Below are positions 1 through 4,985 of a stretch of DNA of 4,985 bases, piece by piece (positions within the stretch are counted from its first letter, which is position 1; each line of letters begins with the position of its first letter). Both the position numbers and the translations under genes were made by a program. The notes under the pieces were generated by a model, which did no database searches, was not told where the DNA came from, and was given only the letters and a program-made list of their open reading frames with translations. This DNA is from a virus (lineage: Duplodnaviria > Heunggongvirae > Uroviricota > Caudoviricetes), in IMG/VR virus record IMGVR_UViG_2579778535_000006; one strand, written 5' to 3'.

Positions 1-118
1 ATGACAAAGTCATCGGGCATTATCTGAACATAAAACACTATCAATAAGTTGGAGTCATTACCGTGGTTATGAATTTTATATTGAGAATTATCCTGAAGCA
101 GGGCTTTATCTTGCAGAA

Positions 119-679
119 ATGCTTTACTTACCCATTGATTTAATTGAGAGTTTCCAAAAACTTTATACGGTAACTGATCAAATACGTAACAAAACAAGTT
201 TCTTTTTACCTCAGAATCCTGAGTTAATATATTGTTGGGAGCAACTAAAAACATCTGTTTCCCGAGGCTTCTCAACTAAAATTCAGGAGCACTTAGCAAT
301 GGGCGTTCTACTTTCGTTAGGAGTGAATCATGTTAATCATTTACTTTTATCATATAGTAAACAATCATTGATAAGTCGTTGTTATAACCTGCTGCTATCC
401 GAACCCGGCACAAAATGGACAGCAAACAAGGTTGCTCGATATCTCTACATTTCTGTTTCTACATTACATCGCCGTCTAGCAAGCGAGGGGGTAAGTTTCC
501 AAAGTATACTGGACGATGTGAGGTTAAATAATGCGTTGTCTGCTATACAAACGACGGTAAAACCTATAAGCGAGATTGCCAGAGAAAATGGTTATAAGTG
601 TCCTTCTCGTTTTACTGAAAGATTTCATAATCGTTTTAATATAACACCAAGAGAGATAAGAAAAGCTTCCAGAGAGTAA
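119..679 (+). CDS. AraC/XylS-family transcriptional regulator; 5' end uncertain, possibly truncated or frameshifted
   Basis: The C-terminal ~95 aa ([42 protein letters not shown]...[26 protein letters not shown]) has the layout of the AraC-type double helix-turn-helix domain. ORF is AT-rich. First canonical start is ATG 119 with no obvious Shine-Dalgarno; the frame is open back to position 5 but closed by TGA at 2-4. By position it could correspond to the DLP12 ybcM regulator, but I cannot confirm this. Confidence 0.6.
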
Positions 680-743
680 AAGTGTTTTAAGAAGGAGCAA
701 TTCTATCGATTTTGATTTTGGGAAATCAACACGGCATAATTAT

Positions 744-772
744 GTCACCGGAGCCTGAACAACTCCGGTGAC
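744..772. repeat. Perfect 10-bp inverted repeat with 9-nt spacer (GTCACCGGAG-cctgaacaa-CTCCGGTGAC)
   Basis: Read directly from the sequence. Lies between the AraC-family stop (679) and the nin operon start; followed by TTCTGCGC, a weak T tract, so it is either a weak terminator for the upstream gene or a protein-binding site. Confidence 0.4.
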
Positions 773-795
773 TTCTGCGCTAAACGGGGACGTTT

Positions 796-897
796 ATGCG
801 CACATACAATCCAAACTCTCTTCTCCCTTCACAGATGCAGAAATGCACCTGCAATTCTTTGCATCTAGCGTTTGACCTCTGCGGAGGGGAAGCGTGA
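796..897 (+). CDS. Small hypothetical protein, 33 aa (ylcH-like)
   Basis: ATG 796 to TGA 895-897 translates to [33 protein letters not shown]. Its stop overlaps the GTG start of the next gene (GTGA), and a 33-aa ylcH sits at this position in DLP12. Not in the supplied ORF track (below length cutoff). Confidence 0.4.
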
Positions 898-1349
898 ACC
901 TCTCACAAGACGGCATCAAATTACATCGCGGCAACTTCACCGCTATCGGTCGGCAGATCCAGCCTTATCTGGAGGAGGGCAAATGCTTTCGCATGGTGCT
1001 TAAACCGTGGCGTGAGAAACGCAGTCTTTCCCAGAATGCACTCAGCCACATGTGGTACAGCGAAATCAGTGAATACCTCATCAGCAGGGGTAAAACGTTC
1101 GCCACTCCAGCTTGGGTAAAAGATGCTCTCAAACACACATATCTCGGTTATGAAACCAAAGACCTGGTTGATGTCGTAACCGGTGATATCACCACTATCC
1201 AGTCGTTACGCCATACCTCCGATCTTGATACCGGAGAGATGTATGTCTTCCTGTGTAAGGTTGAAGCCTGGGCGATGAATATTGGTTGCCACCTGACTAT
1301 TCCACAGAGCTGCGAGTTCCAGCTGCTGCGCGACAAGCAGGAGGCGTAA
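894..1349 (+). CDS. ybcN: NinB-family protein (phage recombination/DNA base-flipping protein, YbcN-like), 151 aa
   Basis: ORF 894..1349 starts at GTG 894, preceded by GGAGG at 883-887. The motif [16 protein letters not shown] aligns with the lambda NinB SLDQN region. Length and position match DLP12 ybcN immediately upstream of ninE. Confidence 0.8.
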
Positions 1350-1519
1350 TGGCTACACCGCTTATTCGTGTCATGAACGGACACATCTACAGAGTACCAA
1401 ATCGTCGTAAGCGTAAACCTGAGCTGAAGCCATCCGAAATACCAACACTGCTCGGATATACCGCCAGCTTGGTTGATAAAAAATGGTTGCGACTGGCAGC
1501 AAGGAGGAGTCATGGCTGA
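1349..1519 (+). CDS. ninE: NinE-family phage protein, 56 aa
   Basis: ATG 1349 overlaps the ybcN stop (TAATG); GGAGG lies just upstream. Product [56 protein letters not shown] is basic with the RKRKP motif typical of lambda-type NinE. The ORF track's 77-aa version (from 1286) is an upstream extension in the same frame. Confidence 0.8.
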   Translation: MATPLIRVMNGHIYRVPNRRKRKPELKPSEIPTLLGYTASLVDKKWLRLAARRSHG

Positions 1520-1802
1520 TTTGAGAAAAGCAGCGCGTGGTCGGGAATGCCAGGTAAGAATCCCTGGCGTATGTAATGGCAACCCTGAAACGTCTGTACT
1601 GGCACATATCCGGCTGACTGGATTGTGCGGCACCGGTACGAAACCGCCAGACCTGATTGCCACCATTGCATGTTCTGCCTGCCACGACGAAATCGACCGC
1701 CGCACGCATTTTGTTGACGCTGGATATGCAAAAGAATGCGCGCTGGAAGGTATGGCGAGAACACAGGTTATCTGGCTGAAAGAGGGGGTTATTAAGGCGT
1801 GA
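1512..1802 (+). CDS. ybcO: YbcO-like phage protein (DUF1364, putative Zn-binding nuclease), 96 aa
   Basis: ATG 1512 preceded by AGGAGG at 1502-1507; overlaps the ninE stop by 8 nt. Product starts [23 protein letters not shown] and carries two Cys pairs (C..C and CSAC) suggesting a Zn site. The ORF track's longer form (from 1473) lacks an RBS. Confidence 0.8.
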
Positions 1803-2161
1803 ATACCTACAGCATCACATTACCCTGGCCTCCGAGCAATAATCGCTATTACCGCCATAATCGCGGGCGCACGCACGTCAGCGCAGAGGGGCAGGCATAC
1901 CGCGATAACGTCGCCCGAATCATTAAAAACGCAATGCTGGATATCGGCCTGGCTATGCCTGTGAAAATCCGCATTGAGTGCCACATGCCGGATCGCCGTC
2001 GCCGTGACCTGGATAATCTGCAAAAAGCCGCTTTTGACGCACTCACTAAAGCAGGTTTCTGGCTGGATGATGCTCAGGTCGTTGATTACCGCGTTGTGAA
2101 GATGCCTGTTACCAAAGGTGGGAGGCTGGAACTGACCATCACCGAAATGGGGAATGAATGA
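1799..2161 (+). CDS. rusA: Holliday junction resolvase RusA, 120 aa
   Basis: GTG 1799 overlaps the ybcO stop (GTGA). Product [36 protein letters not shown]... matches my recollection of RusA, with acidic residues at the catalytic positions D70, D72 and D91 ([10 protein letters not shown] ... WLDDAQ). Confidence 0.9.
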
Positions 2162-2298
2162 TGTTTGAGTTTAATATGGCAGAACTTCTTCGCCACCGCT
2201 GGGGGCGTCTGCGCTTATATCGTTTCCCCGGTTCTGTTTTGACCGATTACCGAATACTGAAGAATTACGCCAAAACCCTGACAGGAGCAGGAGTATGA
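2158..2298 (+). CDS. ylcG: Small phage protein YlcG-like, 46 aa
   Basis: ATG 2158 overlaps the rusA stop (ATGA). Translated by hand to [46 protein letters not shown], stop TGA 2296-2298. Position between rusA and Q matches DLP12 ylcG. Not in the supplied ORF track. Confidence 0.6.
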
Positions 2299-2383
2299 AG
2301 TCAGAGATAACAATCAACTAATACTGTTTTGTTGATTTTTGCTTGTAATTGGCGTTCTGGTCTGATTTTTGTGGAGTAAGTTG

Positions 2384-2767
2384 ATGCGTGATATTCAGAT
2401 GGTTCTTGAGCGTTGGGGAGCGTGGGCGGCTAATAATCATGAAGATGTGACCTGGTCGTCCATTGCCGCCGGTTTTAAGGGATTAATTACTTCAAAAGTA
2501 AAATCTCGCCCGCAATGTTGTGACGATGACGCGATGATCATTTGCGGGTGCATGGCCCGTCTGAAAAAGAACAACAGCGATTTGCACGATTTATTAGTAG
2601 ATTATTATGTAGTCGGTATGACATTCATGTCACTGGCAGGTAAGCATTGCTGCTCTGATGGTTATATCGGGAAAAGGTTACAGAAGGCTGAGGGCATAAT
2701 TGAAGGGATGTTAATGGCATTAGATATCCGGTTAGAGATGGATATCGTTGTTAATAACTCTAATTAA
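2384..2767 (+). CDS. quuD: Late-gene antitermination protein Q (phage 82 / DLP12 QuuD type), 127 aa
   Basis: ATG 2384 preceded by GGAG at 2373-2376. Product [26 protein letters not shown]... with Cys cluster (PQCCDD, ICGC) typical of the Q82/QuuD family. The ORF track start at 2369 is a TTG extension; ATG 2384 has the better RBS. Confidence 0.85.
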
Positions 2768-2906
2768 TATGCCAATTGTTTACTAAAAATTATTAAAAAT
2801 GGGGCGTTGAGACGCCCCCAAAAATAAAGGGTAATATATAACAGAAGGTTTATATAGTTAGAAGCAAGGTTGTGCTTCTAAAGGAAGTGGCTTGAGGGAG
2901 CCACTT
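2768..2906 (+). promoter_or_regulatory. Candidate late promoter / Q-utilisation region (pR'-qut-like) with three stem-loops
   Basis: Sits immediately after Q, where lambdoid phages carry pR' and qut. Stem-loops seen at 2801-2818 (GGGGCGT-tgag-ACGCCCC), 2858-2881 (9-bp stem) and 2885-2906 (AAGTGGCT-tgaggg-AGCCACTT). I could not identify a convincing sigma70 -35/-10 pair by eye, so the promoter assignment is positional only. Confidence 0.25.
2785..2818 (-). terminator. Candidate intrinsic terminator for minus-strand (porin) transcripts
   Basis: The 7-bp GC-rich stem at 2801-2818 is followed on the minus strand by ATTTTTAATAATTTTT. It lies about 140 nt past the porin stop. Confidence 0.35.
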
Positions 2907-2947
2907 ATATGTTGGGGAGGCAACGCCTCCCGCAACATATCTTTTTC
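2907..2947 (+). terminator. Candidate intrinsic terminator for plus-strand transcripts (tR'-like)
   Basis: ATATGTTGGGGAGG-caacg-CCTCCCGCAACATAT forms a roughly 14-bp stem with one bulged G, followed directly by CTTTTTC on the plus strand. Position after Q and the candidate pR' matches lambda tR'. Confidence 0.5.
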
Positions 2948-2956
2948 GTAATCAGA

Positions 2957-4054
2957 TTAGAACTGGTAAACCAGACCTACAGCAACGATGTCATCAGTGC
3001 TTACACCGAGTGCTTTAGTGAAGTCATTTTTGTCAAGCAGGTTGATTTTGTAATCAACGAAAGTAGACATATTTTTGTTGAAGTAATAGGTTGCACCTAC
3101 ATCAACATATTTGACTAAGTCCTGATCGCCCCATACTCCAAGATCCTTACCTTTAGATTGCAGGTAAGCAACGGACGGACGCAGACCGAAATCGAACTGA
3201 TATTGTGCAACAGCTTCGAAGTTTTGGGCTTTATTAGCAACGAAGTGATCAGCAAATACAGTCATATTCTGGGTTTCAGAATAGGTAGTGGCCAGGTAAA
3301 TGTTGTTAGCGTCATATTTCAGACCTGCGGCCCAAACTTCTGCATTTTTACCGGAAGCAAATACTTCAGGAAGAACTTTCCCTGCATTAACTTGAGTGTC
3401 GGTACGATCAGATTTCGCATAAGTTGCACCGATACCGAATCCTTCGTATTCATAGGTAGCAGAGAAACCGAAGCCATCACCGTTACCTTCAGTGTAGTTA
3501 TCGAAATCGCTACGATCGTTTTTGCCTTGGTACTGAGCAGCAAAGTTCAGACCATCAACCAGACCAAAGAAGTCGTTGTTACGATAGGTTGCAACACCAG
3601 TTGCACGTTGAGTCATGAACACGTCGGTTTGAGTCCAAGTGTCACCACCGAATTCTGGCAGGACGTCAGTCCACGCACCGATGTCGTATGCTACACCGTA
3701 GTTACGGCCGTAATCGATGGAGCCGTAGTCACCGAATTTCAGGCCAGCGAAGGCAAGACGGGTTTTATCTTTGGAGGAACCTTGAGATTCAGCGCGGTTG
3801 CCTTTGAATTCATATTCCCACTGACCGAAACCAGTCAGTTGATCGTTGATTTGGGTTTCACCTTTGAAGCCAAGACGGGCATAAGTAGTATCACCATCAT
3901 CTGCATCATTAGAGGAGAAGTAGTGCTTAGCATTAACTTTCCCGTACAGATCCAGCTTGTTACTGTCTTTATTATAAATTTCAGCTGCCTGAGCAGACAT
4001 CGCCATTAGTACTGATGCAGCTACAGCAGAAATTGCCACTGTTAATTTTTTCAT
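2957..4054 (-). CDS. nmpC: Outer membrane general porin, OmpC/OmpF/PhoE/NmpC family (prophage-encoded, NmpC/Lc-like), 365 aa, intact
   Basis: Minus-strand ORF; true start is ATG 4054-4052 ([23 protein letters not shown] signal peptide, [10 protein letters not shown] cleavage site). Mature N-terminus [17 protein letters not shown] and the motifs RLGFKGETQ and GNGDGFG, plus a C-terminal ...GLVYQF, are those of enterobacterial 16-strand porins. The ORF track's start at 4114 adds 20 non-signal residues and is rejected. No IS interruption. Confidence 0.9.
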
Positions 4055-4481
4055 CGTGAGCCCTTTTTTTGAACTATTATTAAAAAATGATGTCACTGCG
4101 CGATAAATATTCATCTAATCAATGTGATTATTTCAAGATGTAAGTTTTGGTTTCTCGTTTGATTTGTGAAGTAGATCTCTATTTTTATCTGAACTTTTTT
4201 CTATCGAATCCTATTCATGGCTCTTGGCTGAATAAAAATAAATCTATTAGCCAATTTATATTAACGGCTGTTATTTATAAGTGCTCTATAATTTGAAGGT
4301 TCAATTTAAACCGGCTAAAAATAACACTGGAAATTATTTTTTGGTTATTTGTTGAGATTTGCTTATGTATTTGTAGTGGTGTTTTCAATACTCGGTAGCA
4401 TTCTCTCAAATATCATTTAGTGGTTTACGTACGTAAAAAATTGGTTATGCTGTTAAGAGTGGTTACTTCGTCACACAGCTT
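4055..4481 (-). promoter_or_regulatory. AT-rich upstream control region of the porin gene (promoter not mapped)
   Basis: Roughly 570 bp without a credible ORF between the porin start (4054) and the holin start (4627), strongly AT-rich with many A/T tracts, as in porin regulatory regions. The exact promoter is not resolved. Confidence 0.3.
4424..4437. promoter_or_regulatory. Perfect 14-bp palindrome TTTACGTACGTAAA, candidate dimeric regulator binding site
   Basis: Read directly; self-complementary over all 14 nt, embedded in AT-rich DNA about 45 bp upstream of the plus-strand terminator and about 190 bp upstream of the holin start. Confidence 0.3.
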
Positions 4482-4515
4482 AAACCCGCCGTCGAGCGGG
4501 TTTTTCCATTTTTTG
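4482..4515 (+). terminator. Rho-independent terminator, plus strand
   Basis: AAACCCGC-cgtcga-GCGGGTTT stem (8 bp, GC core) followed by TTCCATTTTTT. Orientation is unambiguous: the T tract follows the hairpin only on the plus strand. About 110 nt upstream of the holin start. Confidence 0.6.
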
Positions 4516-4626
4516 AGTCTCGATATTAGCTGATAACCCAATACCTGAGTTATTCACTGACTCCGAGTCTGTTACGTTTCGTAGTATTCCCTCAATTTAC
4601 ACCCGCTTTGTCTGCGAGGTGGGGTT

Positions 4627-4842
4627 ATGAAATCCATGGATAAGTTAACAACGGGTGTCGCCTATGGCACCTCAGCAGGTAGTGCCGGGTACTGGTTTTT
4701 ACAGCTGCTAGATAAAGTCACTCCCTCACAGTGGGCAGCAATAGGTGTGCTGGGTAGCCTGGTATTTGGCCTGCTGACGTACCTGACAAACCTTTATTTC
4801 AAGATTAAAGAAGATAAGCGCAAGGCTGCGAGAGGTGAATAA
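4627..4842 (+). CDS. essD: Class II holin (pinholin), phage 21 S-type, 71 aa, with dual-start motif
   Basis: ATG 4627 preceded by GAGGTG. Product [71 protein letters not shown]: Met1-Lys2-Ser3-Met4 dual start, a Gly/Ala-rich weakly hydrophobic TMD1, a hydrophobic TMD2 and a charged C-terminal tail, as in S21 pinholin. Confidence 0.9.
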
Positions 4843-4985
4843 TGCCTCCATCATTACGAAAAGCCGTTGCTGCTGCTATTGGTGGCGGAGCAATTGCTAT
4901 AGCATCAGTGTTAATCACTGGCCCAAGTGGTAACGATGGTCTGGAAGGTGTCAGCTACATACCATACAAAGATATTGTTGGTGTA
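4842..4985 (+). CDS. rrrD: SAR endolysin (phage 21 R-type lysozyme), 5' portion only; continues past window end
   Basis: ATG 4842 overlaps the holin stop (TAATG). Translated by hand to [48 protein letters not shown], whose Gly/Ala-rich N-terminal segment is a signal-arrest-release domain. Partial, 48 codons in window. Confidence 0.85.

Follow-up and report, generated by a model that had tools for sequence, protein, structure and literature searches.

The window analysed here (the whole stretch of DNA, 4,985 nt) opens with the right-hand terminus of the insertion sequence IS1, which is followed directly by the 3' part of ybcM, an AraC-family regulator gene of the DLP12 prophage, and then by the same series of DLP12 neighbours that is found in Escherichia coli K-12, comprising a ylcH-like ORF, ybcN, ninE, ybcO, rusA, ylcG and quuD. 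The features discussed below are collected in Table 1. Between positions 63 and 3018 the window is identical base for base to K-12 MG1655, up to the point at which an IS5 lies in the nmpC gene of that strain, and positions 63-4985 match, in one piece and at 100% identity, strains of the K-12 lineage and related ones in which nmpC is uninterrupted (among them NCM3722, WG1 and some animal isolates).

The porin gene of DLP12, nmpC (2957-4054, minus strand), is uninterrupted in the window as well, with a 365-codon frame beginning MKKLTV; in MG1655, IS5 interrupts the gene about 62 nt before its 3' end, at a site that corresponds to 3018/3019 in the window. The lowest GC content in the window, 0.28, occurs at 4050-4350, in the spacer between nmpC and essD; as the porin gene is on the minus strand, this spacer lies upstream of it.

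Table 1. Features of the IS1-ybcM junction and the DNA next to it, in window coordinates.
Feature	Position	Strand	Remarks
Right end of IS1 (IS1 nt 707-768)	1..62	+	62/62 identity to IS1A/IS1B copies
IS1 terminal inverted repeat ATCAATAAGTTGGAGTCATTACC	40..62	+	Ends ...GGAGTCATTACC at 62
5'-truncated ybcM (b0546, DLP12 prophage) remnant, nt 182-798 of 798	63..679	+	100% identity to K-12 MG1655
Predicted target-site duplication GTGGTTATG, 9 bp	63..71	+	Inference only; expected to be repeated beyond IS1 if the event was a simple insertion
Longest ORF with a canonical start, 186 aa	119..679	+	ATG 119 is internal Met80 of YbcM, without a Shine-Dalgarno sequence
AraC/XylS-type DNA-binding domain, HTH_18 with HTH_AraC in its C-terminal part	434..664	+	Pfam; YbcM residues 185-261
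Perfect 10-bp stem (GTCACCGGAG / CTCCGGTGAC) with a 9-nt loop	744..772	+	z = -2.6 for window 676-800

The IS1 terminus and the ybcM remnant

Comparison of positions 1-62 with complete E. coli genomes returned IS1A and IS1B transposase features, matched at 62 of 62 positions in 71,186 places (E=1e-23). When a full 768-bp IS1 copy was set against the window, its last 62 nt proved to be positions 1-62, down to the terminal base. The annotated transposase coding sequence of the full copy ends at the equivalent of position 47, which makes TAA 45-47 the stop codon of insB, and the final insB codons fall within positions 1-62. The terminal inverted repeat, which we take to be 23 bp long (positions 40-62), adjoins the 3' end of the insB frame, the arrangement by which the segment is recognised as IS1. 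The window holds the terminus only of this 768-bp element of the enterobacteria, and these last 62 nt, with the insB stop and the terminal inverted repeat in them, are identical to those of IS1A/IS1B; the transposase is oriented in the same direction as ybcM.

The first-pass annotation had reported that all three forward frames are stopped within the first 50 nt, and this is correct: TGA 2-4, TGA 25-27 and TAA 45-47 occur one per frame, and all three are in IS1 DNA. The cause was missed in that annotation, for according to the alignments positions 1-62 are IS1 and not ybcM.

A megablast search of positions 1-720 against 5,426 complete E. coli genomes found perfect ybcM matches, every one of which began at position 63. 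The intact gene of MG1655 is 798 nt long, encodes a protein of 265 aa (WP_000881075.1) and starts 9 nt after ybcL, so placed that its start codon is 181 nt upstream of the position equivalent to 63 in the window. What is present in the window begins with the second base of codon 61 and ends with the TAA stop at 677-679. Across the junction, marked here by a slash, K-12 reads ...TTATTTCCTT/GTGGTTATG... and the window reads ...GAGTCATTACC/GTGGTTATG.... Nucleotide identity to the K-12 gene, which encodes an AraC-family regulator of the ybcLM operon, is 100% over nt 182-798 and continues through the downstream DNA, with 4,923 nt of DLP12 nin-region context. Nucleotides 1-181, by contrast, are gone from their place, where the IS1 end is found instead, and that end severs the remnant from the ybcLM promoters, the ribosome-binding site and the first 60 codons of ybcM, its start included. 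The assignment of the gene to DLP12 ybcM, made from the sequence alone, is borne out by this identity. Its low GC content relative to the nin genes is also correct (0.36 for positions 63-679 versus 0.51 for the nin region, 780-2300).

The AraC frame is open from position 5 to position 679 (224 codons and a stop). The full 265-codon frame, with its native start downstream of ybcL, is absent, codons 1-60 having been replaced by IS1 and the frame being closed by TGA 2-4. The earliest ATG, GTG or TTG in the AraC frame is ATG 119, which had been described as the first canonical start and as lacking a Shine-Dalgarno sequence. Both statements hold, with the best anti-Shine-Dalgarno duplex at -3.1 kcal/mol and badly placed, compared with -5.2 at the native ybcM start and -5.9 to -11.8 for the neighbouring genes in the window.

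The AraC-type helix-turn-helix recognised earlier in the translation was detected by two Pfam models, PF12833 (E=6e-17, 62 bits, cut-off 33.6) and PF00165 (E=9e-7, 29.4 bits, cut-off 26.6), and the C-terminal domain of about 100 aa with two helix-turn-helix motifs that defines AraC/XylS membership is thus present. The C-terminal domain of YbcM can be aligned with the DNA-binding domain of GadX (3mkl) and with residues 164-257 of Rns (6xiu). In size and layout the intact protein is like the two-domain regulators of the Rns/CsvR/ToxT/GadX type (about 265-276 aa), although the similarity is confined to the C-terminal DNA-binding domain (E about 1e-6 to 1e-7), and the window copy differs from all of these in lacking a complete N-terminal domain. 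By model score, YbcM reaches no NCBIfam equivalog cut-off. Full-length YbcM also has a weak, sub-threshold N-terminal match of the ExsA_N type at residues 32-129, and because this match spans codon 61 the cut passes through the N-terminal domain, so that the insertion would split the regulatory domain and leave the DNA-binding domain intact.

Origin of the junction

The blocked 5' end is very probably the result of IS1 abutting ybcM at nt 181/182, in codon 61, with the remnant a non-functional, 5'-truncated pseudogene. A transposition junction at this point would part the 3' 617 nt of ybcM from its translation start signals (start codon and ribosome-binding site) and from the ybcLM promoters. 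The insertion target is AT-rich (GC 0.36), and IS1 generates 9-bp target duplications. Simple insertion seems the most likely event, in which case ybcM nt 1-190 and ybcL would be found beyond the other IS1 end; the N-terminal part of the gene, if it survives, is on the other side of the element, no less than 768 bp from the remnant. The remnant would not be expressed at any meaningful level, and it is best read as a dead pseudogene because it has no promoter, no Shine-Dalgarno sequence and no native start. Both the gene and the insertion sequence are known, and an interruption of this kind is ordinary.

A 40-mer across the junction (positions 46-85) had no matches in GTDB representative genomes, IMG/VR or JGI metagenomes, and a 70-nt junction probe searched against the 5,426 complete E. 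coli genomes yielded only chance extensions from other IS1 copies, at about 85% identity. The junction thus appears to be a private IS1 event, probably a recent one, on a K-12-like background.

The same IS1 junction could also have arisen, with a lower but appreciable probability, by an IS1-mediated adjacent deletion or inversion, in which the first 181 nt of ybcM were lost or moved, perhaps together with ybcL and further DNA. Deletions and inversions next to IS1 are a known effect of the element (PMC9330008), the left junction of the element lies beyond the window edge, and there is an analogous case in strain Trp01, where an IS5-adjacent deletion ends inside the gene and joins the IS5 end to ybcM nt 232 (L012:2320-2570). 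There is no direct counter-evidence to such an origin, but simple insertion is the commoner outcome, and in the loci examined K-12-lineage genomes have no resident IS1 beside DLP12. The consequence for ybcM is the same whether IS1 arrived by simple insertion or produced a deletion or inversion.

Expression signals on either side of the junction

In K-12, ybcM belongs to the autoregulated ybcLM operon (PMC8464067). Two promoters are given for it in a table from genomic SELEX (PMC3946193): GTGGCA-17-TACAAT, which precedes ybcL and carries an H-NS flag, and an internal one where ybcL meets ybcM. Both of these published promoters would sit on the far side of IS1. The element has an outward -35 box in its inverted repeat, which can activate neighbouring genes only when a suitably spaced -10 element follows (PMC8764528; PMC9330008). 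In the window this box, TTGGAG (49-54, 3/6), has no acceptable -10 element at 16-18 bp spacing, the best pairing being 8/12 with a 19-bp spacer, and a sigma-70 consensus scan found no promoter-like site upstream of ATG 119.

Further into the remnant there is a promoter-like sequence, TTTACC-17-TATATT, at 205-233, followed by an AGGAG and an in-frame ATG at 299 (284-301). The AGGAG is 10 nt upstream of ATG 299, with a duplex of -6.6 kcal/mol, and translation from this codon would give a stand-alone AraC DNA-binding domain of 126 aa.

On the strength of such signals the remnant might be imagined to be expressed as an N-terminally truncated regulator, either Met80-265 from ATG 119, by initiation independent of a Shine-Dalgarno sequence, or the 126-aa domain from ATG 299, which would act as a regulator-independent activator or a dominant competitor at YbcM sites; we regard this as improbable. 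In favour of it, the remnant keeps an intact DNA-binding domain, some AraC-family proteins (XylS, AraC, RhaS) stay active as isolated C-terminal domains when overproduced, and with IS1 and ybcM co-oriented, transcription reading through from the element or from the ybcLM promoters upstream is conceivable. IS1 insertions are classically polar, however, and at this junction neither a hybrid IS1 promoter nor a Shine-Dalgarno sequence at ATG 119 was found. Promoter-like sites occur here at the frequency that chance predicts for AT-rich DNA (3 found versus 2.3 expected), and the internal signals at 205-233 and ATG 299 are equally present in intact K-12 ybcM, for which PMC8464067 and PMC2824699 report no short isoform.

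A translated remnant would in principle resemble the stand-alone regulators MarA and SoxS (about 107-129 aa), which consist of the domain with two helix-turn-helix motifs and have no sensor domain. Those proteins have their own promoters and start signals, whereas the remnant has none upstream of ATG 119 and carries a partial N-terminal domain. It scores 21 bits with the SoxS model, for which the cut-off is 174 bits, and with no Shine-Dalgarno sequence at ATG 119 and no promoter-like site before it, the ORF does not have the features of a short, stand-alone AraC-type regulator. It is very doubtful that read-through, or the 205-233 site in combination with ATG 299, makes this a neomorphic allele, from which truncated YbcM would bind YbcM sites (ybcL, ucpA, ubiT) without its regulatory domain; if it did, the stress response would be rewired rather than simply abolished.

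Downstream of the remnant, the hairpin at 744-772 begins 65 nt after the ybcM stop, has no T-run after it and is the same sequence as in K-12. It was not flagged by a terminator scan, and an Rfam scan of the window gave no match. The hairpin may be the end of the ybcLM transcript, or a protein or RNase site.

Silencing by H-NS had been raised on account of the low GC content. The spacers upstream of ybcK and ybcL are flagged as H-NS sites in the genomic SELEX table (PMC3946193), and in a literature search for direct H-NS data on ybcM this table, flagging the upstream spacers, was all that was found. Silencing is a plausible idea for the entire island; it leaves the blocked 5' end unexplained.

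Remaining readings, consequences and other ybcM alleles

It is highly unlikely that the junction is an assembly artefact in which 62 nt of IS1 were misjoined to ybcM. Insertion sequence copies are a classic source of misassembly, and the junction occurs in no other genome or collection searched. A k-mer misjoin, however, needs sequence shared by IS1 and ybcM, and none was seen at the breakpoint. The join coincides exactly with the final base of the IS1 inverted repeat, as is characteristic of transposition, and this favours real transposition over a chimera.

The explanations first put forward for the short ORF, namely that the AraC protein is a naturally short variant, that its start is unusual, or that a frameshift has left the N-terminus directly upstream in another frame, have next to no probability left, even with a frame open from nt 5 and with real ybcM alleles elsewhere that carry a +1 T at about nt 179 (L004:3276-4074) or G214T, Glu72stop (L007:3035-3832), both in K-12-type ybcM, since positions 1-62 are not ybcM in any frame and the identical gene in 672 complete genomes runs 181 nt further upstream and encodes 265 aa. 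Homologues do not start at the equivalent of ATG 119, which would have meant an intact gene; this codon is Met80 of YbcM. An unusual start is not needed. Of the frameshift proposal one half stands, in that the gene is a pseudogene, truncated at its 5' end; the other half, that a frameshift had left the N-terminus just upstream, fails on the 62 nt of IS1 found there.

With ybcM read as a pseudogene cut by IS1, we infer that the source strain is phenotypically ybcM-null. Deletion of ybcM in K-12 lowered survival of H2O2 about 8-fold (PMC8464067), and a ybcM::Tn5 mutant was hyper-susceptible to killing by nalidixic acid, a phenotype that could be complemented (PMC2824699). For annotation, the ORF at 119-679 should be recorded as a ybcM pseudogene fragment beside IS1 and not as a novel short AraC regulator, and the case illustrates that a stop in every frame at the edge of a window can simply be the end of a mobile element. 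The value of the finding is limited to annotation and strain genotype, both the gene and the element being already known.

Complete E. coli genomes contain two groups of ybcM, one in 672 genomes at 99% identity or more (K-12 type) and one in about 2,580 at about 90%. Members of the latter are often at a different chromosomal position. The 3' part of the gene was covered in 3,216 genomes as against 674 that matched a 141-nt 5' probe, a mismatch that arises because there are two allele groups and megablast with a short, AT-rich probe misses the one at about 90%.

Disruption of the K-12-type gene is not confined to the window. Besides the frameshift, the nonsense allele and the Trp01 deletion described above, ybcM::IS2 is found in EV36 mutants (L011:1320-3453), where PGAP labels the gene as two incomplete pseudogene pieces, the label given to copies split by an insertion sequence. 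In all of these the same gene is inactivated as here, but the element and the position differ, and none has IS1 at nt 181/182. A Glu72Asp variant of YbcM has also been described in work on arylomycin resistance (PMC7817135).

A look-up of exact matches to the 186-aa product returned six short draft contigs from different assemblies (L002, L003, L005, L006, L008 and L009) that begin at the window equivalent of 117-119. An insertion sequence hotspot or a repeat boundary at 117-119 seems the less likely reading; the pattern is most simply a selection effect, because only contigs that break within this 3-nt range give the identical partial product. The only real internal 186-aa calls in the look-up were those of the frameshift allele (L004) and the nonsense allele (L007).
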